Source: an uncultured Candidatus Saccharibacteria bacterium
Lineage (GTDB): Bacteria; Patescibacteriota; Minisyncoccia; Phycocordibacterales; EsbW-18
Length of the DNA: 34,059 nt
NCBI GenBank assembly: GCA_964631485.1
Contig: CAZVYH010000005.1
Span: forward strand, 14,610 to 48,668
Direction: 5' to 3'
The notes under the pieces are model-generated. The model saw nothing but the letters and a program-made list of their open reading frames with translations, searched no databases and had not been told where the DNA came from. The translations under genes and the position numbers were made by a program. Numbering within the stretch: position 1 is the stretch's first letter; every line of letters begins with the position of its first letter. Shown here piece by piece: positions 1-14,753 of this stretch.

Positions 1-1089
1 ATGAAGATTCTCATGATTTCAGGAGACAGAAATATATTAAAACCCGACTCCGCGGTTGCCGGGCGGATGGTGTTGCACGGTCGGGCTGTTGATGAAATAC
101 ACATCATTATCCCATGTGAAGGAGAACATATTCAGTTGGGAACAAATGTCTTTGTACACCCGACGGGGACATCCAAGATCACCTCAAGAATATCGAGTAT
201 TGTTCGTACTGGTAAAACCATGGCGGATATACATCTCATAACAGCACAGGATCCGTTTGAGTACGGCATCGCCGGGTTGCGTTTAGGGAAGATGTTCAAT
301 GCACCCGTTGAGTTACAGGTACATACTGACATCGGAAGCCCATACTTTTTCAGAGAAACAAAAAACAAAATACGCAAAATCGGTCTTGCGAGACGGTTTA
401 AAAGAGCAGCGGGTATTCGTGTTGTATCTGAGCGTGTCGCACATGCTGTGGAGGGGTTTGGTGTCGGACGTAGTCGCGTTTCAGTACTTCCGATGTTTAT
501 TGATGTTAAAAAATTTGAGTCTGTTACACACACGCCGTCTTCTCAAGAAAGGTCTATTCTGATGGCCGGTCGGTTAGAAAAAGAAAAAGAATATCCGATA
601 GCGTTTCGTGCGTTTGCGCGTGTACTGAAAATGTTTCCGGATGCACACCTGTATGTTGCAGGAGAAGGGCGGTTGCATGCACGTCTTGCTTCGTATGCTC
701 AAAAACACAATATAGGACACGCGGTGACGTTTCTCGGAGCGGTTCCGGACATTACACCACACCTTGTTTCTGCCCATGTATTTCTCCACACATCGCGATA
801 TGAGGGCTTTGGTGTTGTGCTCGCGGAAGCAGGGCTTGTAGGTACTCCGATCGTATCAACTAATGTCGGGATTGCAGGAGGCGTTCTTCGTGACGGAGAG
901 CACGGGAGAGTGGTTCCCGTCGGTGATGTTGAAAAAATAGCACACGCACTCAGTGAGACGTTCTCGCATCCGCAAAAAGCACACGAACGCGCTCTTTCCG
1001 CAATGGGCGTTATACAAAAAGAACTTCTCTCGTCCGAGATGTATATTCAAAAACTGAAAAGCATCTGGTCTTCATATATAACAACATGA
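1..1089 (+). CDS. Glycosyltransferase, GT4-type (GT-B fold)
   Basis: 362-aa ORF with a plausible native N-terminus (MKILMISGD) at window base 1. The C-terminal half carries a GT4-like signature RYEGFGVVLAEAGLVGTPIVSTNVG. Its stop overlaps the next start (ATGA at 1086-1089). Confidence 0.8.
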   Translation: MKILMISGDRNILKPDSAVAGRMVLHGRAVDEIHIIIPCEGEHIQLGTNVFVHPTGTSKITSRISSIVRTGKTMADIHLITAQDPFEYGIAGLRLGKMFNAPVELQVHTDIGSPYFFRETKNKIRKIGLARRFKRAAGIRVVSERVAHAVEGFGVGRSRVSVLPMFIDVKKFESVTHTPSSQERSILMAGRLEKEKEYPIAFRAFARVLKMFPDAHLYVAGEGRLHARLASYAQKHNIGHAVTFLGAVPDITPHLVSAHVFLHTSRYEGFGVVLAEAGLVGTPIVSTNVGIAGGVLRDGEHGRVVPVGDVEKIAHALSETFSHPQKAHERALSAMGVIQKELLSSEMYIQKLKSIWSSYITT

Positions 1090-2135
1090 AATTGCTCATC
1101 ATCACACAGGTTCTTGATACGGAACATCCCATCCTGGGGTTTTTTCACGGGTGGGTCGAGGAATTTGCGAAACACTGCGAGTCGGTACTTGTTATCTGTC
1201 TGCAAAAAGGACACTGCGAACTGCCGAAAAATGTCAGGGTTCTTTCCCTGGGAAAGGAGGAAAAAGTATCACGGATGCAGTACCTTCAACGTTTTTTCAA
1301 ATACATTCGTGAGGAACGCGACAACTACAACAATGTGTTTGTGCACATGAACCAGGTATATGTGATTCTGGGGGGACTGTTTTGGCGGGTATGGAAAAAG
1401 CACGTGTCGTTGTGGTACGCGCATGGGTCGGTTTCGGCATCATTGCGTCTTGCGGTTTTACTGTCTCACAGCGTGTATACTTCGACACCGCAAGGGTTAC
1501 GTCTTCATACAAAAAAGAAACACATTGTCGGACAGGGTATTGATATGCGCTCTTTCGATTTCTATGAGCACCGGACAGGAGATGAGCTCAATTTGATTAC
1601 CGTGGGGAGAATTTCTCCGGTTAAAGATCTTGAAACGCTTGTCGATGCGGTTTCGGTGATGCATAAACACGAAGCGCATTGTCTGTTCACAGTTGTCGGT
1701 GATGCGGAGACAAGTCAACAGCACTCATACAAACACGAAATTATTCAACGCATAAAAAATCGCGAGATTGAGGCATTTGTCACATGGCAGGGATCGCAGC
1801 CGTACAAAAACATTTCACACATCGTCGGAAAAGCAGATGTGTTTCTGCATGCGAGCCGTACGGGCAGTTTGGATAAGGTTGTGCTAGAGGCACTTGCGGT
1901 CGGCACACTGCCGGTGACGTGCGACCCGACGCTGTCCGAAGAACTACCTGAAGACCTGAGAAGGGTATGTTGTGTTCCTCAAGGAGATGTACAAGCGTAC
2001 GTGCGGGCGCTCATGTTCATTCGCTCACTTTCAGACGAAGAATCCGACCGTTTGCGTAAAAAGGGACGCGCATACGTCGAGAATCACCACTCGCTGACAG
2101 CACTTATTCCAAACATCCTCTCTACATTAAGGTGA
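1086..2135 (+). CDS. Glycosyltransferase, GT4-like (GT-B fold)
   Basis: 349-aa ORF translationally coupled to the upstream GT (ATGA overlap). The C-terminal Rossmann half has ITVGRISPVKD...FLHASRTGSLDKVVLEALAVGTLPV, resembling the GT4 E-x7-E region. Confidence 0.72.
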   Translation: MKLLIITQVLDTEHPILGFFHGWVEEFAKHCESVLVICLQKGHCELPKNVRVLSLGKEEKVSRMQYLQRFFKYIREERDNYNNVFVHMNQVYVILGGLFWRVWKKHVSLWYAHGSVSASLRLAVLLSHSVYTSTPQGLRLHTKKKHIVGQGIDMRSFDFYEHRTGDELNLITVGRISPVKDLETLVDAVSVMHKHEAHCLFTVVGDAETSQQHSYKHEIIQRIKNREIEAFVTWQGSQPYKNISHIVGKADVFLHASRTGSLDKVVLEALAVGTLPVTCDPTLSEELPEDLRRVCCVPQGDVQAYVRALMFIRSLSDEESDRLRKKGRAYVENHHSLTALIPNILSTLR

Positions 2136-2155
2136 GGCATTAGGGTCTGAAAACG

Positions 2156-2164
2156 TGGTATAGT
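2156..2164 (+). promoter_or_regulatory. Extended -10 box TGgTATAGT, 7 nt upstream of ATG 2172 (leaderless-type promoter candidate)
   Basis: Sequence TGGTATAGT at 2156-2164, spacer cttgcct, then ATG at 2172. There is no Shine-Dalgarno motif. Confidence 0.45.
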
Positions 2165-2171
2165 CTTGCCT

Positions 2172-2801
2172 ATGGATGCTCAAACATTTGAAAATGCACG
2201 CTGGTTAGCAGGTAACCAAAAAGTGCAATTTAGACACCGCGCCTGCGTAGACATGGTCACTGAAGGCTCCGTTCTCGATGTTGGGTGTGGAGATGGTCTC
2301 CTACTCTCAATGCTCAAAGAGAAAGGTGTTTTAGGTGAAGGTGTTGATTTTTCTGAGGATGCGGTTCATAAATGTGCGGAGCGTGGAATACATGCCACGC
2401 AACATGACCTCTCAGAAAAACTACCATTTGCAGATAATTCGTTCGATTATGTTGTTGCGTTGGATGTGCTTGAGCACCAATTTGACCCGCTGTCAGTTCT
2501 TCGTGAAATGACACGTGTATCGCGTAAAAATGTTGTGGTCGGAGTTCCAAATTTTTCGTCACTTCCAGCACGTTTTCAAACTCTTTTTGGACGCGTTCCC
2601 GAAAACAATCGACCCAACAAGGGCCATGTGTATTGGTTTAATTATTTTGTGTTGATGAATCTTGCAATACACGCAGGACTTGAGTCGGGTACATATACAG
2701 CAAATACATTCAAACCACTTAGTTTTTTTGGAGGATTTTTTCAGAGATTGTTTCCTAATGCATGTGCCTTATCTTTTGTTGTTTGTTTTGTTAAAAAATA
2801 A
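2172..2801 (+). CDS. Class I SAM-dependent methyltransferase, MetW-like
   Basis: Motif I VLDVGCGDGLLLSML, followed by FDYVVALDVLEHQFDP and VVVGVPNF, closely resembles MetW-type methyltransferases. The ORF-track start 2166 is TTG; the first ATG is 2172. Confidence 0.8.
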   Translation: MDAQTFENARWLAGNQKVQFRHRACVDMVTEGSVLDVGCGDGLLLSMLKEKGVLGEGVDFSEDAVHKCAERGIHATQHDLSEKLPFADNSFDYVVALDVLEHQFDPLSVLREMTRVSRKNVVVGVPNFSSLPARFQTLFGRVPENNRPNKGHVYWFNYFVLMNLAIHAGLESGTYTANTFKPLSFFGGFFQRLFPNACALSFVVCFVKK

Positions 2802-2847
2802 ACAAAGAATTGTTACGTAATATAATTTGGTGATTTTGTATTTACAC

Positions 2848-3483
2848 ATGAACAAAAAACGAGTGCTTAAAAATATGTTACGGGGGCAATCACTCTCTCG
2901 GGCGCTTATGAATGAGGGGCTGTCTTTGGTTAGTTTGATGGGGAAGGTTTTGGATGTGGGAGGCGCACGAAACCCAGACTATTTTCACTATTTTCAAAAA
3001 AAAGGAGAGGTTCACATCGATATCATTGACGGCTCATTCCAGAAAATAGATTTTGAAAAAGACCCACTACCATACGCAACTGATTCTTATAATGCAGTTG
3101 TTGTGTGTAATGTGTTAGAGCATATCTTTAACTATCAGTTTCTTGTGGGGGAGATGCACCGAGTCCTTAAAAAAGATGGAATATTGGTGGGGTATGTACC
3201 ATTCTTTTTTCAGTATCATCCCGACCCACATGATTACTTTCGGTACACAGGTGAAGCACTTCAAAAAATTCTAACAACTGCTGGTTTTTCCAGTATCGAC
3301 GTAAAAAAGATTGGCCGGGGTCCATTTTTTGTGAATTTTAATATACTCATGCACTCTATACCGGTGCCGCTCAGATTATTTGTGTTTCCTTTTTACGCCC
3401 TGTCTGATTGGTTTTTTCTAAAATTACGCCCAAAAGCTCGTGAACGATTTCCTCTCGGATATCTTTTTGTTGCAAAAAAATAA
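2848..3483 (+). CDS. Class I SAM-dependent methyltransferase (Methyltransf_11-like)
   Basis: VLDVGGARNPDY (degenerate motif I) and YNAVVVCNVLEHIFN...LKKDGILVG (post-I/II/III motifs). A TATAAT box at 2821-2826 argues for ATG 2848 rather than the TTG at 2827. Confidence 0.7.
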   Translation: MNKKRVLKNMLRGQSLSRALMNEGLSLVSLMGKVLDVGGARNPDYFHYFQKKGEVHIDIIDGSFQKIDFEKDPLPYATDSYNAVVVCNVLEHIFNYQFLVGEMHRVLKKDGILVGYVPFFFQYHPDPHDYFRYTGEALQKILTTAGFSSIDVKKIGRGPFFVNFNILMHSIPVPLRLFVFPFYALSDWFFLKLRPKARERFPLGYLFVAKK

Positions 3484-3484
3484 T

Positions 3485-4537
3485 ATGTTGAATCTTTTTG
3501 TTGGTCCCGAGAAAGAGGGTGTTGGAATTACAAGGCTTCTTTCGAAGTATCGTGGTACGCAAAAAGTCAGCTCTCAATTATTCCAACCTATAGAGGTTCC
3601 AGTACGGGATATTTTTAATATTGTTGATTCGATTGATGCTTCGGATGCAATTTTATTTCCACATGACTACGCTTCGGTTATGTATGACAGTGGTTTTATT
3701 GAAACATATCAGGAATTATCTAAGGTTCACAAGAAAAAAATTATCGTGTTCTCGCTTTCCGATAGGGATATTTTTGTACCGTTGGAAAATGCAATTATAT
3801 TAAGGACATCTGCATACCGATACAAACTGCGTCCAAATGAAATTATAGTGGTCCCATTCATTGAGGATCTGGGAGCTATGTATGGCGTTGTGTTTCGGAA
3901 CAAGGAAAACAAAACTCCAACAGTGGGTTTTACAGGACTAGCTTCTTGGCCGAACGTTTCTTCAAGGGTCATAGCCCACATTCGTCAGATACAGCTCTTT
4001 TTACGCACCTTTATTTCTGGAAGAAAAGAGTTTTTAGCCCACACGCAAGGAATTTTTTTGAGACGAAAAGCAATCAGTGCTTTAGAGGCATCTCAACATG
4101 TTCGACCCATTGTCACTATCCGCCACTCATTTTCGGGGCTTGCACGAACGATTGGTTTGGATCCAGAAAAAGCGCGTAGTGAATATATTCAAACAATGCA
4201 AGAAAGTGATTTTTGCTTGGCTCCGAAGGGAGACGGTAACTACTCGCTTCGTTTTTATGAAGCTCTTTCTTTGGGTAGAATCCCCGTGCTTGTAGATACC
4301 GAAACGGTATTACCTTTTGAAGATAGAATTAAGTATGATGATGTTATTATTCGCGTGCCAATGCAGGACGTCAAAAATATTGGAAATATAATTGCGGATG
4401 AGTATACACATATGACCAAAGATGAGTTTATACAACGACAACAAAAGGCACGAAAAATTTTTGAGGAATTTTTAAAACCAGAGAAATTTTATACCACTCT
4501 TTTTAATGAGTTTGCAACTCAGTTTCATTCGGGATAG
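3485..4537 (+). CDS. Exostosin-family-like glycosyltransferase (GT47-like)
   Basis: The C-terminal motif SDFCLAPKGDGNYSLRFYEALSLGRIPVLVDT matches the exostosin-family signature (FCL-P-GD...S-R-EA-GCIPV). ATG 3485 follows the upstream stop at 3481-3483; the ORF-track start 3440 would overlap it. Confidence 0.68.
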   Translation: MLNLFVGPEKEGVGITRLLSKYRGTQKVSSQLFQPIEVPVRDIFNIVDSIDASDAILFPHDYASVMYDSGFIETYQELSKVHKKKIIVFSLSDRDIFVPLENAIILRTSAYRYKLRPNEIIVVPFIEDLGAMYGVVFRNKENKTPTVGFTGLASWPNVSSRVIAHIRQIQLFLRTFISGRKEFLAHTQGIFLRRKAISALEASQHVRPIVTIRHSFSGLARTIGLDPEKARSEYIQTMQESDFCLAPKGDGNYSLRFYEALSLGRIPVLVDTETVLPFEDRIKYDDVIIRVPMQDVKNIGNIIADEYTHMTKDEFIQRQQKARKIFEEFLKPEKFYTTLFNEFATQFHSG

Positions 4538-4546
4538 TGTGTTGGT

Positions 4547-5350
4547 ATGAAAGAGTTTTCGGGCGATAACCCGCTTTCGTGGGCACAAAAAATTTGGTAC
4601 GTGTTCTACAATATATCCAGAAACATTCTCGGTTTGAGGTACCCACTTCGTATGCGTTTCTGGCACACCTATTTTCAGTATGCAAACCAAGATTCTCCAA
4701 CGCGTTCATATCTTGACGCCTTTATGGGTTTAGAGCTTCCTCAACTTTTTTCTCCAAGGAGTGTTTCAATTCTTGATATTGGGTGTGGCACTGCGTATGT
4801 TCGTTCGATTCTTGCCCATTCCGGGTACTTAGGAACATACACAGGTGTTGATGTGATGCTTGAACCAAAGTTCGATATTAATGCACATCCTGAGTTCAAA
4901 ACACAATTTCTTAATCAAGACATTACTACTTTTGATACACAGGAAAGGTTTGATATGGTTATTTCGAATACATCTCTTGAACATATTGCAGACGATACAC
5001 AGGCAGTGATTGTTGCGCATCATCTGACTCGGGAAGATGGTATTGAGGTGCACCTTATGCCATCGCTTTGGTCACTACCTCTTTATTTATGGCACGGGTA
5101 TCGGCAGTATACGCCGGCACGCGTGAGGTCTCTTTTTAAAGGAACTCAGTATCGGGTATACCGAATGGGAGGTCTGGGCTCATTTTTCTTGCACTTTTTT
5201 TGTATTACAATTCCAGAACGTTTTTTAGGTATATCCACACTGCGAACAAAAACAATATATACAAAGTTAAAAGCAGTCGCTAATAAAGCAGACAGGTTTT
5301 TGCCGTTATGTTCACCGCTGTATGCTGTCGTTGTATTTCATGGAAAGTAG
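4547..5350 (+). CDS. Class I SAM-dependent methyltransferase
   Basis: Motif I ILDIGCGTAYVRSIL, then FDMVISNTSLEHIADD. Confidence 0.7.
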   Translation: MKEFSGDNPLSWAQKIWYVFYNISRNILGLRYPLRMRFWHTYFQYANQDSPTRSYLDAFMGLELPQLFSPRSVSILDIGCGTAYVRSILAHSGYLGTYTGVDVMLEPKFDINAHPEFKTQFLNQDITTFDTQERFDMVISNTSLEHIADDTQAVIVAHHLTREDGIEVHLMPSLWSLPLYLWHGYRQYTPARVRSLFKGTQYRVYRMGGLGSFFLHFFCITIPERFLGISTLRTKTIYTKLKAVANKADRFLPLCSPLYAVVVFHGK

Positions 5351-6488
5351 GCAACACAAAAAAATCCATATTGCGTTTGTTTTACCGAGCTTGCTTCCCG
5401 GCGGTATTGAGAAGCATACGTTGAAATTGCTCAGACATTTTGATCGCACAAGATTTTCTTTTTCACTCGTTACACTTTTTGATCTGCCTGGGCGGTCCGA
5501 TTTGTACAACGACGTGCCGGATGATGTTACGGTGTATCGACTCGCATTTGCAACGGGGGTAGATATTCCGCAATGGAAGCATTTGTATACGATCTTCAAA
5601 AAAGAGAAACCGGACGTTGTCGTTTCAAGTATGTTTTCAGCAAACACTATTGTTCGTTTCTTGAAACCGTTGTGTGGATATAAAGTGGTCACACGTGAGC
5701 ATAATATTTACTCTGAAAAAAATATCTTCCAGCGATTTGTTGATATGGTACTTGCTCCACTTTCAAACACTATTATTGCGGTCTCTTCGTCGGTTGCCGA
5801 TTTTTTTTCTAATCAAGCATGGGTTAATCGTGGAAAAATCAAAGTTGTTCACAATGGTGTTGATATCGGTGCAATAGACGCATATATTCGCGAAAAAGGG
5901 GAAGATGAAGCGCTGCGCGTTAGACACGAACTCGGAATATTGGATGATGAAAAGATAATTCTCAATGTCGCACGTCTCAAGCCTCAAAAAAACCACAAGC
6001 TCCTTATTGATGCATTCAGTCTTTTTGTAAAAACACACCCTCAGTACCATTTGGTAATTGTTGGTGACGGCGTTGAACGCGAGCGACTCAAGACATATGT
6101 TTGTGAAAATAATGTGTCAAAGGTTCATATTGTTGGATATCGTTCAGATGTGTTTGCGTTTTATTCAGCAAGCACACTGTTTACTCTTACATCCCGATTT
6201 GAGGGGTTTCCTAATGTTGGTGTTGAGGCAATGGCATTCGGTCTTCCTATGGTTTCAACAAGTGTACCGGGTGTCGACGAATTTCTCGTGAACGGAGAAA
6301 ATGGTTTTATTGTTGCATCTGATACACAAAGTGTAACTAGGGGGATGAGTGTTGTTGTGGATGTTATAAGTAAAAATCCAAGTGCGTATACGCAGAATTG
6401 CAGAGAAACCGCGGGTCGGTTTGATATTGTGAAGATTACAAAAGAGTATGAAAAAATTATTCAGTCGATTCTTCAAAAGAACACATGA
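5340..6488 (+). CDS. Glycosyltransferase, GT4-type
   Basis: N-terminal IHIAFVLPSLLPGGIEKHTLKLL and C-terminal LTSRFEGFPNVGVEAMAFGLPMVSTSVPGVDEF (GT4 E-x7-E region). ATG 5340 overlaps the upstream stop by 11 nt. Confidence 0.82.
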   Translation: MESRQHKKIHIAFVLPSLLPGGIEKHTLKLLRHFDRTRFSFSLVTLFDLPGRSDLYNDVPDDVTVYRLAFATGVDIPQWKHLYTIFKKEKPDVVVSSMFSANTIVRFLKPLCGYKVVTREHNIYSEKNIFQRFVDMVLAPLSNTIIAVSSSVADFFSNQAWVNRGKIKVVHNGVDIGAIDAYIREKGEDEALRVRHELGILDDEKIILNVARLKPQKNHKLLIDAFSLFVKTHPQYHLVIVGDGVERERLKTYVCENNVSKVHIVGYRSDVFAFYSASTLFTLTSRFEGFPNVGVEAMAFGLPMVSTSVPGVDEFLVNGENGFIVASDTQSVTRGMSVVVDVISKNPSAYTQNCRETAGRFDIVKITKEYEKIIQSILQKNT

Positions 6489-7269: not shown

Positions 7270-7271
7270 AT

Positions 7272-8168
7272 ATGAAAGTAAGTATTATTGTAGCAACATA
7301 CAACCGCGAGAAGACACTCCTAAGGGCGCTAGAGAGTATTTTACAACAAACGCATTCTGATATTGAAGTTGTGGTGGTTGATGACGGCTCAACCGATAGT
7401 ACGGAGAAATTAATGAAGACAGTCACTGATTCGCGAGTGCGATATATTAAACTCGACAAAAATAGCGGTGCCTCAATAGCCCGCAATCGAGGCGTTCAAG
7501 AGGCAACCGGAGACTATATTCTTGTCTGGGACAGTGATGATGTATTGTATCCAAACGCTTTTGAAAGAATTCTCTCTGTGTTCGATCAACATCCTGAAGT
7601 GTTTATTGTCTCTGCTCCCGCAAGAGTACTTGTTGACGCAAAAGAAAAAACATACCCACATTTCCCAACCGGAGAGGTCAGACTCATAGATATATTGTGT
7701 AAAAAACTCCCGAGTAATATGAAGGTTCGTGTTGCACGGACAAGTGTAATGAAACAGGTGTCCTATAAATCAAGAAATATTGATTTTTTGGTCAATGTTG
7801 AACTTATTGAAAAAGGAAAGTGGTATCACCTAGATGAGGCGCTTGGTGATGTACACAATAATCCAAATGAAGGATCACTCACCGCATCAAGAAAAAAGAA
7901 GAACGTTCAGTACTCTATTGAACGTGCTCCGTACCTATTATCTTTTCTAGAGAGACAAGGGGAGCTTCTCAAGGAGACATGTGCGTCTCGTTATGCCGAC
8001 TACTCTTATGGTGCAGGAATAGGATTTTTTCTTGCGGGCGATATACACAACGCTCGGCATCTTATTCATGAAGCGGTTGTGTACCATCCAACAAAATGTT
8101 CATATGTTGGACTCCTTATTCTGTCATATATTCCAGGAGGGGTCTCAATACTACGACTGTTGTACTAA
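7272..8168 (+). CDS. Glycosyltransferase family 2
   Basis: Canonical GT2 N-terminus VSIIVATYNREKTLLRALESILQQTHSDIEVVVVDDGSTDST, followed by GASIARNRGVQEATGDYILVWDSDD (DxD). Confidence 0.88.
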   Translation: MKVSIIVATYNREKTLLRALESILQQTHSDIEVVVVDDGSTDSTEKLMKTVTDSRVRYIKLDKNSGASIARNRGVQEATGDYILVWDSDDVLYPNAFERILSVFDQHPEVFIVSAPARVLVDAKEKTYPHFPTGEVRLIDILCKKLPSNMKVRVARTSVMKQVSYKSRNIDFLVNVELIEKGKWYHLDEALGDVHNNPNEGSLTASRKKKNVQYSIERAPYLLSFLERQGELLKETCASRYADYSYGAGIGFFLAGDIHNARHLIHEAVVYHPTKCSYVGLLILSYIPGGVSILRLLY

Positions 8169-9037
8169 TTCTTTGTTTGTGTTGGTTTGTTGCGGTAACA
8201 ATAGAGAAGTAAATCTTGGAAACGGTGTTTCTTGATGAGGGGTAAAAACGGTGCATCTATTTGATAGGTAAAACCAGATTGTTCAATATCTCCGAGTATA
8301 TGAGACAATTCTGACTTGTCTCTGTTGATATTGTGGTGGTATTCAATAACCATTTCTTGTATGTAGTGCATTGTGTTTGTGCTACATAAATCTTTTACAA
8401 TATCTACTTCAGCGCCCTCGGTGTCTATTTTTAAGAAATGAACAGGTTGTGTGATAAATGTAGATACAGGAACAAGTGAAACTGTTATCGGTAGTGCACC
8501 ACCTCTTTCTTGAAGTGTGCTGGCAACGAGCGATGTTAGGTTTTCTGCTTGTGTATACAGTGTGATTGTTCCAGATTTTTTACCAAGTGCGACGTTATTG
8601 AGATGGACTGACTGTAGCCCATTACTCTGTATGTTTCGTTCAAGTATTTTAAAAGCCACCGGATCTGGCTCGAATGCATAAATAGTGCTGTCGGGATATA
8701 GCCACTTAAAAAAGAGCGTTGCAACACCGATGTTGCTTCCACAATCAAAAATAGTCGGTGTTTCGACGTTGCTCTGAAATGCATAGTGTCCACGTACAAA
8801 TATCTCTCGAAAGAGAAACCATAATGAATCACGATTGTATGTATACACGGTAAACCCACATATTTTTTCATTACGTAGTTTGTTGCATGTGGAGCGGTAC
8901 AAAAAAAAGAGTTGTTTTAGGAATAGGCGGATATACGTTAAATAAACTTCTCGTTTCTTATGCCGAGGGTATTTTTGTTTAGTAAGTACGCGTATATCGG
9001 GTACTAGGTTGTACAGATTCTGAGCTAAAATACTCAT
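8165..9037 (-). CDS. FkbM-family methyltransferase (Methyltransf_21)
   Basis: IFDCGSNIGVATLFF...IYAFEPDPVAFKIL...FLKIDTEGAEVDI. It is a paralogue of 6448-7269 in the opposite orientation. Its stop codon overlaps the convergent GT2 stop (CTAA at 8165-8168). Confidence 0.8.
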   Translation of the reverse strand: MSILAQNLYNLVPDIRVLTKQKYPRHKKREVYLTYIRLFLKQLFFLYRSTCNKLRNEKICGFTVYTYNRDSLWFLFREIFVRGHYAFQSNVETPTIFDCGSNIGVATLFFKWLYPDSTIYAFEPDPVAFKILERNIQSNGLQSVHLNNVALGKKSGTITLYTQAENLTSLVASTLQERGGALPITVSLVPVSTFITQPVHFLKIDTEGAEVDIVKDLCSTNTMHYIQEMVIEYHHNINRDKSELSHILGDIEQSGFTYQIDAPFLPLIKKHRFQDLLLYCYRNKPTQTKN

Positions 9038-9042
9038 AGGTG

Positions 9043-9642
9043 TTATTTTCTACTCTTTGTCCACGTTATCTTTACTTCACCATTGCGATGATTGCCTAGC
9101 ATGCGCACAAGAGTAAGTCCATATCCATAGGGAAGAGTGAGAGTTTCGTGACGGTATCCAAGAAGTGCAAGGCGTACAGCTAATTTAAGTCGGTATGTCG
9201 GTACGTGTTCAGTGTCGTGTACCAGAAGAATGGCGTTGTGTTTCATGAGTGGCAGAATTTTTCGTAAATCTTTGTAGACGACACGCCACTCATGTGAACC
9301 GTCGTGAAGGACCACATCAAAACACATATCTTTAGATACTGTTGAGAGGGTTTGTCTAGTATCGCCTTGAAGATATGTCCATGCCGGATAGTTTTCTTTT
9401 AATGAGGGGTCATTTCCCGTGTCCTGAATATTCCTTTGATCACACGTAATGAGTGCTCCATTTGTTTTTTTAAGCGCTTCAAGAATAACGGGCGTCGAAA
9501 ATCCAGCCCCTAACTCCAGCACGTTTTTTGCTTCCATGCCAACAATAAGACTATAGAGAAATAGGTAATGGAGCGTAAAACCACTTGAGTTTTTTTCTAT
9601 TTGCGAAATAATTTTTTGTACTATTGTTTCCATGTAACACAT
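9043..9642 (-). CDS. Class I SAM-dependent methyltransferase (O-methyltransferase / Methyltransf_24-like)
   Basis: VLELGAGFSTPVILEAL (motif I)...FDVVLHDGSHEW...LLVHDTEH. An alternative start is at 9633 (METIVQ). It is tightly packed between the flippase and the FkbM gene. Confidence 0.62.
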   Translation of the reverse strand: MCYMETIVQKIISQIEKNSSGFTLHYLFLYSLIVGMEAKNVLELGAGFSTPVILEALKKTNGALITCDQRNIQDTGNDPSLKENYPAWTYLQGDTRQTLSTVSKDMCFDVVLHDGSHEWRVVYKDLRKILPLMKHNAILLVHDTEHVPTYRLKLAVRLALLGYRHETLTLPYGYGLTLVRMLGNHRNGEVKITWTKSRK

Positions 9643-9643
9643 C

Positions 9644-10933
9644 TTACAACACGTACTTATTTTGAGTGAGTTTTTGAGAATCCCGTGAAAGTTTAAAAAA
9701 TATACACAGAATAATAATAAGGCGAACCAACTCCATTCCTAGTATGGAAGCAAGAGCACCCCAAATACCATAGAGGGGAAGAAGGATAAGGAGCAATAAT
9801 ATTTTTGTGACAGGGACAATTGTTTGCAGTATATATAACCATTTTTGTTGCATTTGTCCGACAAGGAATTGTTGGAACAGAGCTGCTGGAAAGAAAAGGA
9901 TAACTAGAGAAAATACTTGAGAATACCGAGTGGCATCAGTGTACATTGGGAAGAAAAAACTAAAAAACCAAGGAGCAAGTAAAATGTATATCGCCACAAT
10001 CACAATTGATACAAGAAAGACAATAAAAGCTTTTCGGGGAAGTGTTCTATAAATCAACGTTGGGTCATTACCACTAAACTTTGGCAGCGCCATCGCAGAA
10101 AGTAATTTACTTCCAAAACGTAGTTGTTGCGGTGCTGCAAGTGCAATTGTGTAGAGAGCCATTTGTACAGCTCCAAGATAATGAAACACAAGAAGACGAT
10201 CGAGTTGAAGTGAAATAGAACCAAGAATGTTCATAACGCTCAAATGCTTTCCATATGTTAGGGTTTTTGCCTCTGTTTTTTTAGGAGGGTTGTATCGTTT
10301 TAGTGTAATACGATAGAAAAGTATTGCCGAAACGGCACCTGTCCCGAAGAACGCCGCCACAAGAAAAGGTGTGACATCTGTAAATAGTACAGTGATCCCT
10401 GTCGCCAGTAGTGGAAGAATGGTGCACACAATACCAAAAATGGTTTCTGTTTTGAACTCTTTTTTACCAACAAGAAAGGGGCTAAAGAGTGTACCTGCTT
10501 GGGAAAGTGGCAACGCTATTCCAACGACGATAAGTGACCAACCAAGTACAATGTTCCCTTGTACAAAATAATAAAAGGCCGAACCCCAAGCAATAATCGT
10601 CATCAACACACTCCATGAAAGAAATGTTTTAAAACCCTCACGCACCACCCCATCATTTCCTCGTGCTACAGATTGGATAATAGCTGCACCCATTCCGGTG
10701 AGAGAGAACGCTGTAATAATTCCTGCAAATGATTGGATGAACTTATAGTGACCAAGAGCCTCTTTTGAGATGGTGTTTGCTAAGAGAAGTGTGAGTAAAA
10801 AACCAGATCCAGCGCCTATAATGCGCCCAAAGGTTATCCAAAAACCACCCTTGGCAAGGTAGAGCATATCTGTTTTTGTATACCGCTCGCTCCAACGAAG
10901 GAAGTGTACTATCTTATTTTTTACCTCTTGCAT
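9644..10933 (-). CDS. Wzx-like oligosaccharide/polysaccharide flippase (MOP superfamily)
   Basis: 429-aa polytopic membrane protein with about 12 hydrophobic segments. Its N-terminus is typical of polysaccharide biosynthesis flippases, and it sits in a glycan locus. Confidence 0.72.
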   Translation of the reverse strand: MQEVKNKIVHFLRWSERYTKTDMLYLAKGGFWITFGRIIGAGSGFLLTLLLANTISKEALGHYKFIQSFAGIITAFSLTGMGAAIIQSVARGNDGVVREGFKTFLSWSVLMTIIAWGSAFYYFVQGNIVLGWSLIVVGIALPLSQAGTLFSPFLVGKKEFKTETIFGIVCTILPLLATGITVLFTDVTPFLVAAFFGTGAVSAILFYRITLKRYNPPKKTEAKTLTYGKHLSVMNILGSISLQLDRLLVFHYLGAVQMALYTIALAAPQQLRFGSKLLSAMALPKFSGNDPTLIYRTLPRKAFIVFLVSIVIVAIYILLAPWFFSFFFPMYTDATRYSQVFSLVILFFPAALFQQFLVGQMQQKWLYILQTIVPVTKILLLLILLPLYGIWGALASILGMELVRLIIILCIFFKLSRDSQKLTQNKYVL

Positions 10934-10945
10934 ATATGCTAGTGT

Positions 10946-10957: not shown

Positions 10958-10989
10958 TTCTTTTGTCCCTGTGTTGAACCACTACACCG

Positions 10990-10998
10990 TGATACCAT
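10990..10998 (+). promoter_or_regulatory. Extended -10 box TGaTACCAT, 8 nt upstream of ATG 11007
   Basis: TGATACCAT at 10990-10998, spacer tttgtcgt, then ATG. No SD. Confidence 0.35.
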
Positions 10999-11006
10999 TT
11001 TGTCGT

Positions 11007-11741
11007 ATGAAACCATCAAAATTCTTCGTTATTAACGAGATTGAAAAGATGCTTGTCCAAAAGCCTGATTTAGTTATCGCTGACCTTGGGTCGGGACAGT
11101 CAAAGAATTTTGTTGGGCTTCTCAAAAAACATCCACAGATGCGATATGTGGGTTTTGAACCAAATAAGAACGAAGCGGATCAAGCTCGTGCGATACTCGC
11201 ATCATTTCCGACAGCTTCAGTTGAGGAGCGTTTAGGATATGGAACAGATGAAGAAGAATGGAGGGGGAAGTTCGATGTTGTTGTGTCTTTGAGTGTTCTT
11301 GAGCATGTGAAAGATTTAGAAACATTTTTACAGTTTTCTGTGGATCTTTTAAAATCAGGCGGGCGTGTCATTCATTTGTACGACCTTGGACACGCGCTCT
11401 ATCCTTCAAACATCAAAGAGCGTTTTCATGTCGCACTTTGTAACCTCTCCAAAAAGTATTCTTTTATAAAGAAATTTATTCCTGAAACAAAATTTGCTGG
11501 ATATGTAGATGTTTCGTATGTAAAGGATATTCTTCAAAAGAATGGAGTAGGTATAGAAAAGGTGACACAGCACAATAATCCATTCCTTGTTGCTCTACTT
11601 AAAAAAAGTAGTAGTACGACTGTGGACAGAATTCTTACTCTCGTTTGTACTTTGGAAGAGGAGATATACAAGGGTATTGAAGATGTGTCTGTGTTAGAAA
11701 AGACCTTGCCATCAGTGTGTGTTTGGGGGAGAAAAAGCTAA
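11007..11741 (+). CDS. Class I SAM-dependent methyltransferase
   Basis: VIADLGSGQSKNF (motif I)...FDVVVSLSVLEHVKD...LKSGGRVIHL. The first ATG after the promoter-like box is 11007; the ORF-track start 10971 is GTG. Confidence 0.65.
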   Translation: MKPSKFFVINEIEKMLVQKPDLVIADLGSGQSKNFVGLLKKHPQMRYVGFEPNKNEADQARAILASFPTASVEERLGYGTDEEEWRGKFDVVVSLSVLEHVKDLETFLQFSVDLLKSGGRVIHLYDLGHALYPSNIKERFHVALCNLSKKYSFIKKFIPETKFAGYVDVSYVKDILQKNGVGIEKVTQHNNPFLVALLKKSSSTTVDRILTLVCTLEEEIYKGIEDVSVLEKTLPSVCVWGRKS

Positions 11742-11772
11742 TTTTCAAGTGTTCGCCTGAGTCTTTCTAAGG

Positions 11773-11781
11773 TGCTATAGT
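11773..11781 (+). promoter_or_regulatory. Extended -10 box TGcTATAGT, 9 nt upstream of ATG 11791
   Basis: TGCTATAGT at 11773-11781, spacer atttcacat, then ATG. No SD. Confidence 0.45.
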
Positions 11782-11790
11782 ATTTCACAT

Positions 11791-14022
11791 ATGCAACGTA
11801 TTCTTGAAAAAATGTTAGTCGGCGGATTGTTTCTCGTTCCGTTCATTCCTTTCGTGGTGACGGGGTCAATGTTTTTCCCTTTTATTACAGGGAAAGCGTT
11901 CGTGTTCCGTATCATTGTCGGCGTGTTGCTTGCGTTGTGGTTTCTTGTGGTTATTGTAGACACGTCGTATCTCCCTCGTCGGTCACCTCTTATTGTAGGT
12001 ATTCTCACCTTTTTCGGTATTGTTGCGCTTGCCGACCTTCTTGGCGTCAATGTGCATCGGAGTATCTGGAGTAACTTTGAACGTATGGAGGGACTCGTTA
12101 CCTTCATATACCTCTGCGCCTACTTCTTCATTGCGTTTTCTGTTCTGACGAAGAAAAACGCATGGAAGGCCTTTTGGAACACCTCGGTTTTCGTAAGCGC
12201 CGGGGTGGGTATCTACGCACTTCTTCAACTTGTGGGGGTGTTGGTAATGTCTCAAGGTGGCGATCGTGTGGATGCAACGCTCGGTAATTCAATTTATCTG
12301 GCGGTGTACATGCTTTTTCACGTGTTCCTCACACTCTGGCTTTTGTACAAATCTCTACCGGCAAAAGTTTCCTCTGTTTTGTATGTGTGCGCCCTTATTC
12401 TTCAAACAGTTGCTTTGTATTACACGGGAACGCGCGGCACTCTACTTGGTCTCATCGGAGGGTTGGGTCTTTCTGCGTTGCTTGTTGTATGGAAAGGGAA
12501 GCAGCACCCACGGTTGCGGCGCTTGTCCGTAGGATTTATTTTGGCCGTCATCTTATGTGGAGCGGTTTTCTTCAGTCTTCGTGAAAGCTCATTTGTTCAG
12601 AACAATAACTTTCTTTCGCGCATTGCAAACACCTCTTTGTCCGGACAAACAGTGCAGTCACGTCTGGTGTTGTGGGGAAGTATTGCAAAAGACGGTTTTC
12701 TCGAAAGGCCGATTCTTGGTTGGGGGCAGGACAACTTTATTGTTGTGTTCGGGAAATATTACGATCCGCGAATGTATATTCAAGAGCCGTGGTTTGACCG
12801 GGCACACAACGTTTTTTTTGATTGGCTCATCTCTGCGGGTATTCTAGGCCTTCTGGCGTACCTCTCGTTATTTGGTGTCACTCTCCGTACCCTCTGGCGA
12901 TCTGATACGGCGCTCTCCGTTCCTGAACGTGCACTCTTTACGGGTTTGCTTGCGGGATACTTTGTGCACAATATTTTTGTGTTCGATAACCTCATCAGTT
13001 ATATTTTCTTTCTTTCCTTCATTGGTTTTATTCATTCATTTTCATCCCTTCGTTTACGTGATGTTGGTGAGACAGGAAGACGGCGGGGATGGCATTGTAT
13101 ACAAGACGCACATCTTCGCACAGGTATTTCAATTACAGGTGGTATCGTCATACTTATTCTTACCTATACAACAACAGTCCCTCACATTATTGCATCACAA
13201 GCTCTCATCACGGGGATCTCGCGTATAGGACAAGGTTCTGATCCGGCGGACACACTTCCGTTCTTTGAGCGCGCGTTGGACGATTCGATAGGAAAAGATG
13301 AAACACGATTGCAGTTGAGTCGTGTTGCTTTTGCTCTTGCAACAAGGGACGTCCCAGAGGAGATTAAGCAAATGTACCTTTCTCGCGCCTACACGGAAGC
13401 CCGTCTAGCCGCGCAAGAGGATCCTCTTAGTACACGATCAAAGTATTTTTTGGCAATCTTCGAGGCTCGTATTGGTAATTTTGATGAGGCAATACGTTTA
13501 TACGAAGAGTTGTTGACGATTAATCCTGTACGGCAGATATTTCTGAGTGAATATGGCACCGTACTTCTCTTAAAAGGAGAACGCGAACGTGCCAAAGAAG
13601 TGTTTGAAAGACTTGTTGTGCTTGCGCCGGAAAATCGGGACTATATTACTCAGTACATTACGACCTTGTTTGGAATAGGGCAAGAGTCCGATGCGCTTTT
13701 GTTTGCCAGAACTGCACTTGGGACAACGACGGCAGATTTTATTTCCGATGCGTACAACAAGGGGCAGATGACCGACTATAATACAACAACAAAAGTCATC
13801 ACGTTTCAAATTCTTCGAGGTGATCTCCTAGAAAACGCGGATATCAACACATACCTTCTTCAGATTAATGAACTTGCTAACGCGGGGAAAACGGAACAGG
13901 CACTACAACTTATCGATGATGCCGCCGGACTTAACCCTGAATTTGCAAAAGGTGTTCCAATGTTGCGCGAAGCGATATTAAGCGGAAAAGGTCTTCTTTT
14001 GGAGAATACCGCAGGACAATAA
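11791..14022 (+). CDS. O-antigen ligase/polymerase-like (Wzy_C domain) polytopic membrane protein with C-terminal TPR repeats
   Basis: 743 aa. The N-terminal ~480 aa has many TM segments and a Wzy_C-like core (YTGTRGTLLGLIGGLGL, then a large loop WGSIAKDGFLERPILGWGQDNF). The C-terminal ~240 aa is soluble, helical-repeat and TPR-like (AIRLYEELLTINP, AKEVFERLVVLAPEN, ALQLIDDAAGLNPE). Confidence 0.75.
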   Translation: MQRILEKMLVGGLFLVPFIPFVVTGSMFFPFITGKAFVFRIIVGVLLALWFLVVIVDTSYLPRRSPLIVGILTFFGIVALADLLGVNVHRSIWSNFERMEGLVTFIYLCAYFFIAFSVLTKKNAWKAFWNTSVFVSAGVGIYALLQLVGVLVMSQGGDRVDATLGNSIYLAVYMLFHVFLTLWLLYKSLPAKVSSVLYVCALILQTVALYYTGTRGTLLGLIGGLGLSALLVVWKGKQHPRLRRLSVGFILAVILCGAVFFSLRESSFVQNNNFLSRIANTSLSGQTVQSRLVLWGSIAKDGFLERPILGWGQDNFIVVFGKYYDPRMYIQEPWFDRAHNVFFDWLISAGILGLLAYLSLFGVTLRTLWRSDTALSVPERALFTGLLAGYFVHNIFVFDNLISYIFFLSFIGFIHSFSSLRLRDVGETGRRRGWHCIQDAHLRTGISITGGIVILILTYTTTVPHIIASQALITGISRIGQGSDPADTLPFFERALDDSIGKDETRLQLSRVAFALATRDVPEEIKQMYLSRAYTEARLAAQEDPLSTRSKYFLAIFEARIGNFDEAIRLYEELLTINPVRQIFLSEYGTVLLLKGERERAKEVFERLVVLAPENRDYITQYITTLFGIGQESDALLFARTALGTTTADFISDAYNKGQMTDYNTTTKVITFQILRGDLLENADINTYLLQINELANAGKTEQALQLIDDAAGLNPEFAKGVPMLREAILSGKGLLLENTAGQ

Positions 14023-14728: not shown

Positions 14729-14753
14729 TCTCTTTCCCTACAAGACTTTTACG

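Follow-up and report, generated by a model that had tools for sequence, protein, structure and literature searches.

What does a locus build when seven methyltransferase genes lie among its glycosyltransferase genes, and what is the role of the Wzy_C protein encoded at its end? Here, we address these questions for positions 1–14022 of a 34,059-nucleotide stretch of DNA ("the window"). A sequence-only reading had described this region as a methyltransferase-dense glycan assembly locus of 14 adjacent genes. Pfam searches bear out each of the 14 genes and the family to which it had been assigned: five glycosyltransferases (GTs), seven class I SAM methyltransferases (MTs), a Wzx-type flippase, and a Wzy_C+TPR protein. 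The ORF coordinates are correct, and the start codons agree with independent gene calls in near-identical contigs. The identification as a glycan-assembly locus is supported. All components come from known families, and the locus is an unusual variant, not a new kind of system. The features are as follows:

g01, 1..1089, + strand: GT4 glycosyltransferase (Pfam Glycos_transf_1, 113.6 bits)
g02, 1086..2135, + strand: GT4 glycosyltransferase (Pfam Glycos_transf_1, 71.2 bits)
g03, 2172..2801, + strand: class I SAM MT, MetW-like/Methyltransf_11 (Pfam MetW 95.6, MT11 62.5 bits)
g04, 2848..3483, + strand: divergent class I MT (Pfam MT11, 32.3 bits; cutoff 21.2)
g05, 3485..4537, + strand: exostosin/GT47-like glycosyltransferase (PF03016, 59.7 bits; cutoff 33.4)
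g06, 4547..5350, + strand: class I MT, Methyltransf_23/11 (Pfam)
g07, 5340..6488, + strand: GT4 glycosyltransferase (Pfam Glycos_transf_1, 119.2 bits, and Glyco_transf_4)
g08, 6448..7269, + strand: FkbM-family MT (PF05050, 54 bits; TIGR01444, 76.7 bits; cutoff 37.7)
g09, 7272..8168, + strand: GT2 glycosyltransferase, soluble/peripheral (PF00535, 136.4 bits)
g10, 8165..9037, − strand: FkbM-family MT (PF05050; TIGR01444, 99.6 bits)
g11, 9043..9642, − strand: class I MT, Methyltransf_24 (PF13578, 57.6 bits)
g12, 9644..10933, − strand: Wzx-type flippase, Polysacc_synt/MOP (PF01943, 64 bits)
g13, 11007..11741, + strand: class I MT, Methyltransf_12 (Pfam)
g14, 11791..14022, + strand: WaaL-fold Wzy_C enzyme with C-terminal TPR (PF04932, 68.3 bits, plus TPR)
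Hairpin, 14103..14135, + strand: terminator-like, closing the g13–g14 unit (15-bp stem, 9 GC pairs, T-rich tail)
g15, 14243..14728, + strand: 161-aa membrane-anchored protein (N-terminal TM segment, acidic low-complexity C-terminus)

A strain-variable island

The left edge of the window is not the edge of the locus. A contig 99.85% identical to the window (L018), from the same population, carries two additional GT4 genes directly upstream of coordinate 1, and the full locus therefore has a GT:MT ratio of 7:7 rather than 5:7. The reported excess of methyltransferases holds within the window but, for the whole locus, is an artefact of truncation. Positions 1–14022 are best explained as the 3′ ~86% of a surface-glycan island of ~16.2 kb. 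An LTD/PKD surface-protein gene borders the island on one side, and a conserved block of Wzy_C-TPR, murB, and secA borders it on the other.

The closest homologs belong to Candidatus Campbellbacteria/Parcubacteria. The host is a Campbellbacteria-like Patescibacterium with a small genome, in line with the earlier suggestion of a CPR bacterium. Comparison of synteny across related genomes, which the sequence-only reading had advised, reveals the island, flanked by the same genes but mosaic in content, in three Campbellbacteria relatives (L015, JANLIT, and CP064977). The relatives have GT:MT ratios of 7:7, 8:8 (here with an acyltransferase as well), and 7:4. From genome to genome, genes are retained, missing, or exchanged for divergent alleles, whereas the flippase stays 79–95% identical; the island is strain-variable. 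The varying part is the low-GC segment g03–g13 (GC 0.38–0.42, versus 0.44–0.56 in core genes), and in all four genomes the variable segment lies 4–7 GC points below its flanks. The AT-richness noted previously is thus real, down to the count of exactly 23/60 G+C at 3481–3540.

The 14 genes are tightly packed, with a coding share of ~99% and junctions ranging from −41 to +73 nt. The gap between g13 and g14 is 49 nt with no terminator in it, and the two genes are probably co-transcribed. In a consensus scan, the only basis on which terminator-like hairpins were called, the sole strong one of the locus lies 3′ of g14. The next gene, g15, has its own terminator-like hairpin (14753–14785) and no Pfam match. 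A g15 ortholog (69%) occupies the same position in JANLIT and is absent from two more distant loci, L019 and L020. g15 is a lineage-specific neighbor of g14 and, speculatively, may serve as its partner or acceptor.

Glycosyltransferases, methyltransferases, and flippase

The glycosyltransferases differ in how well they are conserved among the three relatives. g01, the third GT of the full locus, has orthologs in all three (56–68% identity), and g02, which overlaps g01 by 4 nt, is 73–77% identical. Identities are lower for g07 (44–63%) and g09 (44–69%); by hydropathy, g09 lacks a GtrB-like double TM tail. g05 shows allelic divergence (77%, 66%, and 31%). The PF03016 match of g05 is confined to its C-terminal part, and its match in the PDB, to human EXT1, is weak (E 8e-4).

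All seven methyltransferases exceed Pfam cutoffs and keep the GxG-type SAM loop of motif I, and two are FkbM proteins by both PF05050 and TIGR01444. Seven such genes among 14 neighbors is far beyond chance. They are not recent duplicates, because the best pair shares only 29% identity. Their distribution among the relatives is patchy: (i) g03 (VLDVGCGDG) and g08 have orthologs only in JANLIT (77% and 69%, respectively); (ii) g04, with the variant motif VLDVGGARN, has orthologs in L015 (67%) and CP064977 (63%) and none in JANLIT; (iii) g06 (ILDIGCGTA) is 49–69% identical; (iv) g11 (VLELGAGFS) occurs in L015 and JANLIT and is missing from CP064977, which has a TylF/MT24 gene at another place in the island instead; (v) g13 (IADLGSGQS) is also missing from CP064977. 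The g10 model (AF2, pLDDT 91.5) has a class I Rossmann methyltransferase fold. Homologs of g10 with 40–45% identity occur in Nitrospira, Methanobacteriaceae, and Aminicenantaceae, and both contexts examined (Nitrospira and an Aminicenantaceae-type contig) are GT/flippase glycan loci. g10 is a tailoring cassette found across phyla.

What the seven enzymes methylate is a separate matter. HMM, PDB-sequence, and fold searches neither assigned nor reassigned their substrates. On substrate, NCBIfam gave only generic, sub-threshold matches (best MetW, UbiG, BioC, and similar), with no equivalog at or above cutoff for g03; PDB sequence and profile searches were empty or marginal; and the g10 fold search returned generic RNA and small-molecule methyltransferases. 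These results would accommodate a locus in which most of the seven act on lipids, proteins, non-sugar substituents, or the N/C atoms of amino sugars, or in which several are inactive, and whose glycan is then not heavily O-methylated. The characterized Tannerella O-glycosylation cluster, with three Mtfs for two methyl groups, leaves similar room; counts of methyltransferase genes and of methyl groups can differ. We nevertheless consider such a locus very unlikely. Motif I is kept throughout, the methyltransferase genes lie in among the GT genes and are translationally coupled to them, the roughly 1:1 MT:GT ratio is kept in related islands, g10 homologs of two other phyla also sit in GT/flippase loci, and the methyltransferases of the Tannerella and M. 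tuberculosis PGL loci, which have the same layout, act on sugars. From operon context here and, by analogy, in other phyla, we infer that the seven enzymes O-methylate sugars, and the glycan is probably methylated about once per sugar. Methyltransferase-rich glycan loci are already known from M. tuberculosis PGL, Tannerella, and an Aminicenantaceae EPS locus. A chemical precedent is the S-layer O-glycan of Kuenenia, which carries up to five methyl groups on six sugars (PMC5088730).

The flippase, g12, has at least nine hydrophobic segments and is unusually conserved; by hydropathy and Pfam, no protein of the locus besides it and g14 is polytopic. In profile searches, the whole window lacks a phosphoglycosyl transferase, any nucleotide-sugar gene, and Wzz, as the sequence-only reading had stated, and no primer or sugar-activation genes lie within 10 kb upstream in the three relatives. 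This absence is ordinary rather than peculiar: the listed contents of the Tannerella cluster include no primer or OTase either. In E. coli, wecA sits outside the O-antigen clusters. An anti-phage or conflict system has a vanishingly small chance of being the right description. PF20706 ("GT4-conflict") matches g01, g02, and g07, but scores well below generic GT4 models over the same regions. Weak PADLOC mad2 matches (20–30 bits) to three methyltransferases span only the generic methyltransferase core, with no other defense component, and a flippase with a WaaL-like enzyme points to export of a lipid-linked glycan.

The Wzy_C-TPR protein

The g14 model (AF2, pLDDT 91.3) has the WaaL ligase as its best structural match (Foldseek, 7TPG, TM-score 0.62 on the target), although its overall hhalign match to E. 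coli WaaL is weak (E 0.016). The family-invariant residues R215/R291/H339 align with WaaL R215/R288/H338, and in the model the Arg/Arg/His triad of WaaL/PglL is intact on an external loop. TM13 (the 13th TM helix), which comes after a cytoplasmic loop bearing RRR, places the TPR domain outside. The PglL_A motif (PF15864) and Wzy_C_2 are absent from Pfam searches even at E ≤ 10, as they are from the OTases TfpO and TfpM (PMC12645811).

The g14 family is large in Parcubacteria, with 2,491 cluster representatives at E ≤ 1e-30. The order Wzy_C-TPR, murB, secA is kept in distant Parcubacteria whatever lies upstream, and murB adjoins the g14 homolog in all five lineages examined. g14 is 67–71% identical across islands of differing content. 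Homologs with ~40% identity and the same murB-secA synteny lie beside an unrelated phosphonate/LicD glycan locus (L019) or with no glycan locus alongside (L020). We conclude that g14 is a conserved Parcubacteria core gene that anchors a variable island, and not a polymerase specific to the locus. Its conservation beside changing or absent glycan loci fits a donor-promiscuous ligase or OTase better than a Wzy.

Could the pathway still be of the Wzx/Wzy type, with g14 as its Wzy polymerase and a methylated, capsule- or EPS-like repeat-unit polysaccharide as its product, which another enzyme (e.g., LCP) attaches or releases? WaaL, PglL, and some Wzy proteins are indistinguishable by sequence (PMC3643930). 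PF04932 includes genuine polymerases, such as the Wzy_C protein of L023, an EPS locus of the classical Wzx/Wzy/Wzz/Wza type that includes four methyltransferases. g14 is the sole polymerase candidate beside a Wzx, with no second Wzy-like gene in the locus, and g13 and g14 are apparently co-transcribed with the island. We regard a polymerase as unlikely, given the constancy of g14, its match to WaaL, and the lack of a Wzz/PCP in the window or any relative; moreover, the Wzy class is noted for high sequence variability (PMC12502699), and a TPR domain on the outside suggests that the acceptor or partner is a macromolecule. Also doubtful is a ligase with a non-protein acceptor (a membrane glycolipid, a lipoteichoic-acid-like anchor, or peptidoglycan), which would make the product a CPR counterpart of LOS/LPS or a secondary cell-wall polymer. 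The WaaL fold and triad, the missing PglL-specific motif, the strict adjacency to a peptidoglycan precursor gene, and the frequent attachment of heavily methylated oligosaccharides to lipids, as seen in mycobacterial PGL and GPL, all favor it. However, adjacency to murB could be plain conserved gene order, TPR domains usually serve in protein-protein interactions, and in the PDB (Foldseek) the g14 TPR domain resembles the superhelices with which the protein glycosyltransferases OGT and SPINDLY bind their substrates. The island is also flanked by secreted proteins that have Ser/Thr-rich linkers. Furthermore, PglL and WsfB, the latter a predicted Gram-positive S-layer O-OTase, are reported to combine Wzy_C with a TPR motif at the C-terminus (PMC2943079). 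g14 shares this architecture with WsfB, whose own role is a prediction, and is a candidate en bloc glycan transferase.

A proposed pathway

We slightly favor, at a little better than even confidence, a pathway in which a heavily methylated oligosaccharide is assembled in a Wzx-dependent manner and then passed en bloc to an acceptor on the surface, probably a protein. The phosphoglycosyl transferase that primes the polyprenyl-phosphate carrier would be encoded elsewhere, and common nucleotide sugars would likewise be made or acquired elsewhere; no primer, acceptor, or LCP gene was identified in the window. Seven soluble glycosyltransferases (five GT4, one GT47-like, and one GT2) would then build an oligosaccharide of roughly 7–8 residues. 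In the cytoplasm, the seven mutually unrelated, soluble methyltransferases would tailor it, most plausibly by O-methylation of sugar hydroxyls, with roughly one methyl group for each residue. The Wzx-type flippase would move the lipid-linked glycan outward, and g14, by its fold, active site, and topology, could transfer it en bloc to an extracytoplasmic acceptor. The likeliest acceptor would be Ser/Thr residues on surface proteins, the target proposed for WsfB and demonstrated for PglL O-oligosaccharyltransferases.

Swaps of methyltransferase and GT cassettes in the low-GC core of the island would then generate strain-specific surface structures. For a reduced genome without dedicated rare-sugar pathways in the locus, methylation may be the main source of that diversity.

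Gene content and full extent of the island

All 14 ORFs that the sequence-only reading placed at 1-14022 have the coordinates it proposed, and a Pfam HMM search bore out each of its family assignments. The start codons at 2172, 2848, 3485, 5340 and 11007 agree with independent gene calls on near-identical public contigs. We refer to the genes as g01 to g14, in their order along the window.

Genes of the glycan island in the window, by Pfam family
1-1089, 1086-2135 and 5340-6488: GT4 glycosyltransferases (g01, g02, g07)
3485-4537, + strand: protein with a GT47/exostosin-like C-terminal domain, PF03016 (g05)
7272-8168: GT2 glycosyltransferase (g09)
2172, 2848, 4547, 6448, 8165 (- strand), 9043 (- strand) and 11007: seven class I SAM methyltransferases, MTs (g03, g04, g06, g08, g10, g11, g13)
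9644-10933, - strand: Polysacc_synt (Wzx-type) flippase (g12)
11791-14022: Wzy_C plus TPR protein (g14)

The coding density of the 14 genes is ~99%, with gene junctions ranging from -41 to +73 nt. An earlier hand count of 23/60 G+C at 3481-3540 proved exact on recount. The G+C content is 0.38-0.42 in g03-g13, versus 0.47-0.48 in g01-g02 and 0.46 in g14; low G+C is limited to the variable segment of the island. The flippase matches PF01943 with 64 bits (cutoff, 28.2) and has at least nine hydrophobic segments; apart from it and g14, no protein of the island is polytopic. The GT47-like protein g05 (3485-4537, + strand) scores 59.7 bits against PF03016 (gathering score, 33.4), but over profile positions 213-290 of 293 only. 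Its C-terminal ~80 residues resemble the eukaryotic exostosin family (EXT1 in the PDB, E 8e-4), and its N-terminal 240 residues match no family, with alleles in relatives at 77%, 66% and down to 31% identity. No NCBIfam equivalog scored above cutoff for any MT, the GT47-like protein, the flippase or g14, and Rfam and tRNA scans of the window gave no match.

Several other readings of these genes were rejected. Simple repeats or homopolymers that could drive phase variation are limited to trivial two-copy repeats and four A/T runs of 8 nt. The GT2 protein g09 was considered as a GtrB/DPM1-like polyprenyl-phosphate sugar synthase, a role rejected because the double C-terminal TM tail is missing. 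A defence-system reading of the locus was likewise rejected.

The island extends beyond the 5' edge of the window. L018, a contig that reaches further upstream, shares 99.85% identity with the window over 1,945 nt and therefore represents the same population, which is present in samples SRR14932662, SRR14932695 and SRR30303793. Before window position 1, L018 has two additional GT4 genes (393 and 335 aa); these follow genes for a secreted LTD/PKD protein and a 76-aa membrane protein. Hence, the full island is ~16.2 kb long, with 7 GTs and 7 MTs. The impression that MTs outnumber GTs was an edge artefact; the notable feature is an MT:GT ratio of about 1:1.

Related islands and their neighbors

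By their labels, the nearest homologs of g14 and g01 belong to Candidatus Campbellbacteria and those further off to Parcubacteria, Paceibacteria or Patescibacteria, which bears out the proposal of a CPR-like host. The loci compared are four from Campbellbacteria and two from distant Parcubacteria. The synteny comparison showed that three relatives have the island between the same flanking genes: a 43-kb Logan contig (L015), JANLIT010000004.1 (JANLIT) and CP064977.1 (CP064977; an 811-kb record). The order is RsmI, DUF4015, TrwB-like and LTD/PKD, then the island, then Wzy_C-TPR, a 161-aa protein, MurB and SecA. GT:MT counts among the three are 7:7, 8:8 (plus a hexapeptide acyltransferase) and 7:4. 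Island content is mosaic, with genes variably present or absent and some swapped for divergent alleles: among the relatives, g03 and g08 occur in JANLIT only and g04 in L015 and CP064977 only, while g11 and g13 are missing from CP064977. Identity to the relatives is 79-95% for the flippase and 67-71% for g14. The G+C dip of the variable segment is found in every relative, 4-7 points under the flanks; together with the mosaicism, it is a signature typical of surface-polysaccharide islands. The flippase is more conserved than the surrounding GTs and MTs and than g14, yet has low G+C (0.40). Such strong conservation is unusual for Wzx proteins, which are typically divergent and glycan-specific.

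As the sequence-only reading had noted, there is no priming transferase, nucleotide-sugar gene or Wzz anywhere in the 34-kb window. An initiating phosphoglycosyl transferase (WecA/MraY- or WbaP-type) was found neither in the window nor within 10 kb upstream in the three relatives, and the same upstream regions hold no sugar-activation gene. A chain-length regulator (PF02706/GNVR, Wzz/PCP) is missing from the window and related loci; L023, a contig with an Aminicenantaceae-type EPS locus, has one. Since primers are often encoded outside glycan loci, the absence of a primer is compatible with a Wzx/Wzy pathway.

An exact-sequence lookup found no record for g01 and matched g02 to one 5.9-kb contig only. 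A g01 search of genome contigs gave only distant GT4 matches (27-35% identity) from unrelated phyla, meaning that the source lineage has no close homolog among them. Flippase searches of metagenome contigs, with a single sequence or a four-sequence alignment, yielded no confirmed relatives.

The linkage of Wzy_C-TPR, murB and secA runs from Campbellbacteria (contig L014) to two distant Parcubacteria (contigs L019 and L020), in which the order of the three genes is kept. Upstream of the Wzy_C-TPR gene, L019 has an unrelated glycan locus; L020 has no glycan genes and instead encodes a 1,241-aa LTD protein. The family itself is large, with >5,500 matches to g14 in a word-indexed search and 2,491 50%-identity cluster representatives matching the membrane domain alone at E<=1e-30; nearly all of the best 150 of these 2,491 are 700-800 aa long. 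Thus, g14 is a conserved anchor gene and probably not a locus-specific polymerase.

The products of the L019 glycan locus (1-9913; JAQTLZ010000001.1, Pacebacteria) are a PEP mutase carrying a fused cytidylyltransferase-like domain (PF01467), a TPP (phosphonopyruvate) decarboxylase, LicD, an Fe-ADH, two epimerases, a flippase and a GT2-MT fusion, a set that points to a glycan with phosphonate decoration in a further CPR lineage.

The remaining 20 kb of the window is housekeeping (MurB, SecA, DedA, MYG1, Obg, GatB, GAPDH, RpiB, Rpe, split transketolase, FBA, L25). A gene of the PF04020 "4-TMS phage holin" family (19499-19873, + strand) lies between the DedA/VTT gene and MYG1; a PF04020 homolog is directly 5' of MYG1 in JANLIT and L020 as well, the pattern of a core membrane protein rather than of a prophage remnant. 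Transketolase is split over two overlapping genes (26640-27533 and 27511-28515, + strand), one for the N-terminal, TPP-binding part and one for the Pyr/C-terminal part. They belong to a compact pentose-phosphate/glycolysis cluster (RpiB, Rpe, PfkB kinase, class II FBA, GAPDH). The gene for an SLT-domain (lytic transglycosylase) protein (28776-29969, - strand) has the highest G+C of the window (0.56), well above adjoining core genes. An ORF that leaves the window at its 3' end (32731-34059, + strand; >440 aa) encodes a protein with a signal peptide and a long coiled coil, whose C-terminal segment has the lytic-transglycosylase-like motif GGAMGPAQFIPSTW.

The Wzy_C-TPR protein and its candidate acceptors

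The g14 protein matches PF04932 (Wzy_C) with 68.3 bits (gathering score, 31.7). An AlphaFold (AF2) model built on 59 homologs has a pLDDT of 91.3. In this model, the best Foldseek match of the membrane domain is the WaaL O-antigen ligase 7TPG_B (TM-score 0.62 on the target, 461 columns), and the C-terminal domain resembles the superhelical TPRs of OGT and SPINDLY, both of them protein glycosyltransferases. The predicted topology has an outward-facing Wzy_C loop (residues 264-340) between TM9 and TM10, followed by three TM helices, as in WaaL, and then by an RRR-containing loop (427-439). A 13th TM helix would put the acidic TPR domain outside the cell. A functional Arg/Arg/His triad is described for E. 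coli WaaL (R215/R288/H338, all three essential) and for PglL (R224/R298/H349) (PMC3643930). In an hhalign alignment of the g14 profile to E. coli K-12 WaaL, which is weak overall, R215/R288/H338 correspond to g14 R215/R291/H339; these three residues are invariant among 59 family members. PglL_A (PF15864) and Wzy_C_2 were not detected in g14 by hmmscan at either E<=0.01 or E<=10; both are also missing from the OTases TfpO and TfpM (PMC12645811). A strong terminator-like hairpin follows g14 (14103-14135), and none lies between g13 and g14. We found no published description of a Wzy_C-TPR enzyme of CPR in a literature search.

With its PF04932 match, g14 is the sole Wzy polymerase candidate in the locus, and its sequence and fold are compatible with ligase and polymerase alike. 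We nevertheless favor a ligase/OTase role, for several reasons. The gene is conserved whether the adjacent island differs in content or is missing; Wzy enzymes, by contrast, vary strongly in sequence, as an excerpt of PMC12502699 notes. Conservation across islands, and where no island is adjacent, argues against a polymerase. Wzz is absent, and both the fold and the triad are WaaL-like. In addition, g14 has Wzy_C with a C-terminal TPR, the WsfB/PglL architecture, which has been reported for PglL and for WsfB, a predicted S-layer O-oligosaccharyltransferase of the Gram-positive Paenibacillus alvei (PMC2943079).

To our knowledge, Patescibacteria have no outer membrane, LPS or lipid A, and the acceptor of g14 would therefore have to differ from that of WaaL. 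A protein acceptor is plausible. No pilin gene lies next to g14; the only leads are the LTD/PKD protein that bounds the island, with its GSSTSTPSSS...TTAT linker, and g15, the 161-aa protein that follows g14. Upstream of window position 1 lie the genes for the secreted LTD/PKD protein (L018:388-1548), whose Ser/Thr-rich linker is GSSTSTPSSSVKKKTTATAY, and for the 76-aa protein (L018:1549-1779), which has one TM segment and an N-terminus rich in Ser/Thr; the two border the island in all Campbellbacteria relatives. The 1,241-aa LTD protein of L020 (5863-9588) is encoded directly 5' of the Wzy_C-TPR homolog, with no glycan island between. The LTD-type and 76-aa proteins may be glycosylation targets, or may be adjacent by chance. 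The g15 protein (14243-14728, + strand) has an N-terminal membrane anchor, an acidic low-complexity C-terminus and no Pfam family, and its gene has its own terminator-like hairpin (14753-14785). An ortholog (69%) is found at the same position in JANLIT; none is present between Wzy_C-TPR and murB in L019 and L020.

Methyltransferases, precedents and a proposed pathway

All seven MTs score above Pfam cutoffs, as Rossmann-type class I domains, and have the glycine-rich SAM loop of motif I; the weakest is g04 (motif I VLDVGGARN). The assignment of two MTs to the FkbM family is correct: g08 and g10 score 76.7 and 99.6 bits against TIGR01444 (cutoff, 37.7), and both score 54 bits against PF05050 (cutoff, 22.7). 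The MTs are not recent duplicates, with 29% identity for the best pair and no detectable similarity for most pairs. The AF2 model of g10 has a confident class I MT fold, whose Foldseek neighbors are generic RNA and small-molecule MTs only; the fold is therefore silent on substrate. Sequence searches of the PDB with g08, g10 and g11 gave no matches, and a profile of 49 FkbM homologs matched PDB entries only marginally (the uncharacterised FkbM structure 2PY6 and Trm5/TYW2-like proteins). NCBIfam returned sub-threshold generic matches to the MTs only (e.g., MetW, UbiG and BioC).

We infer from gene context that the seven MTs would O-methylate sugars. They are interleaved and coupled with the GTs, and the ~1:1 ratio recurs in related islands. 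Homologs of g10 (40-45% identity) in Nitrospira and in the Aminicenantaceae-type contig are also inside GT/flippase loci. The sequence-only reading had proposed a heavily O-methylated glycan; the interleaving and the 1:1 ratio support this from context, but the family, PDB and fold searches tie no MT to a sugar hydroxyl. A literature search on methylated glycans of CPR found nothing.

There are precedents for methylated glycans and MT-rich loci. The O-glycosylation cluster of Tannerella is polycistronic, encodes five Gtfs and three Mtfs along with a Wzx flippase, and differs in content from strain to strain. The Mtfs methylate sugars of the O-glycan on S-layer and other proteins; since there are three of them for two methyl groups, a count of MT genes is not necessarily a count of methyl groups. 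As in the CPR island, no primer is listed among the contents of the cluster, nor is an OTase. By contrast, Tannerella is diderm, has genes for nonulosonic-acid and UDP-ManNAcA synthesis, and has an MT:GT ratio of 3:5, whereas the CPR island has no sugar-synthesis genes, a 7:7 ratio and a candidate transferase directly adjacent. The characterised PGL-tb system of Mycobacterium tuberculosis has more sugar O-MTs (four: Rv2959c, Rv2954c, Rv2955c and Rv2956) than GTs (three: Rv2957, Rv2958c and Rv2962c) (PMC3594219). However, its sugars are added directly to a lipid aglycone inside the cytoplasm, by a route that lacks a Wzx/Wzy_C step, and its genes lie in a 70-kb PKS locus. In Kuenenia stuttgartiensis, a Planctomycete, the S-layer O-glycan is described in an excerpt of PMC5088730 as short and non-repeating, with up to 5 methyl groups on 6 residues. 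To the extent of that excerpt, this is a chemical and not a gene-level precedent, with about one methyl per sugar.

The locus of L023 shares its mix of families with the CPR island: four MTs (MT24, MT23, MT11-type and FkbM), seven GT4 genes, a GT2, a Polysacc_synt flippase and a Wzy_C protein. Unlike the CPR island, this classical Wzx/Wzy locus has Wzz/GNVR and Wza, as for diderm polymer export, and an MT:GT ratio of about 4:8; its Wzy_C protein is 452 aa long, with no TPR match on record. Its FkbM protein has the label Aminicenantaceae in NCBI. A horizontally transferred module shared with this locus was rejected because only the FkbM protein is specifically similar (41% identity to g10), the rest being similar at the family level. 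Together, the Tannerella, PGL, L023 and Kuenenia precedents make the missing primer and sugar-activation genes ordinary.

For g14, the closest likenesses are to enzymes that transfer whole glycans. The S-layer glycosylation (slg) clusters of P. alvei (WsfB) and Geobacillus stearothermophilus (WsaB/WsaA/WsaE) belong to monoderm envelopes, and WsfB has Wzy_C with a C-terminal TPR (PMC2943079); the likeness of g14 to WsfB is one of architecture as described there, not of sequence alignment. The Geobacillus pathway includes methylation, by the 2-O-methyltransferase domain of WsaE, which forms a single terminal cap (PMC2943079). It differs in this single cap, in its export by a Wzm/Wzt ABC transporter and in having the primer WsaP in the cluster. 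With E. coli K-12 WaaL (7TPG), g14 shares the membrane fold, the triad and the status of a single gene conserved across variable glycan loci; unlike WaaL, it has an extra TM13 and a ~260-residue TPR domain, predicted to be external. PglL, PglS, TfpO and TfpM also belong to the Wzy_C superfamily; they transfer lipid-linked oligosaccharides en bloc once Wzx has flipped them, and are often relaxed about the glycan and often encoded beside their target proteins (PMC3643930, PMC12645811). In g14, by contrast, PglL_A and Wzy_C_2 are undetected, there is no neighboring pilin gene and there is no Gram-negative periplasm.

The best-supported reading of the locus has five steps. Seven soluble GTs would assemble an oligosaccharide from common sugars on a lipid carrier primed elsewhere, and seven soluble MTs would tailor it. 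Wzx would flip the lipid-linked glycan over the membrane, and g14 would move it en bloc onto an external acceptor. Exchange of cassettes in the low-GC core would then generate structural diversity from strain to strain. An extension of this reading, which we consider unlikely, is that a syntenic, Parcubacteria-wide, g14-type general O-OTase attaches any glycan that the island supplies to surface proteins (LTD-type adhesins, pili or S-layer). In Campbellbacteria, that glycan would be near-permethylated and built of common sugars. Surface diversity in a ~0.8-Mb genome would then come mainly from cassette-swapped MTs, in place of rare-sugar biosynthesis, and would likely serve host attachment and phage evasion.

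The component families are all known, and MT-rich glycan loci have precedents. What is distinctive is the density of 7-8 MTs, about one per GT; the complete absence of rare-sugar genes from an island whose host genome may be roughly 0.8 Mb; and the coupling of the island to a CPR-wide syntenic WaaL-fold/TPR enzyme. If the reading is wrong, this is one more MT-rich polysaccharide cluster of a type known in other phyla. CPR/Patescibacteria are episymbiotic, have tiny genomes and meet hosts and phages via their surface; we know of almost no experimental work on their surface glycoconjugates. If the genome is ~0.8 Mb, like the 811-kb record of a relative, the strain-variable island makes up roughly 2% of it. 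If the reading is true, it would identify the enzyme by which glycans become attached to the CPR envelope, and would suggest methylation as a cheap means of surface diversification where rare-sugar pathways are absent. The methyl-sugar signature (a +14 Da series) would also offer a handle for CPR glycoconjugates in enrichment glycoproteomics.
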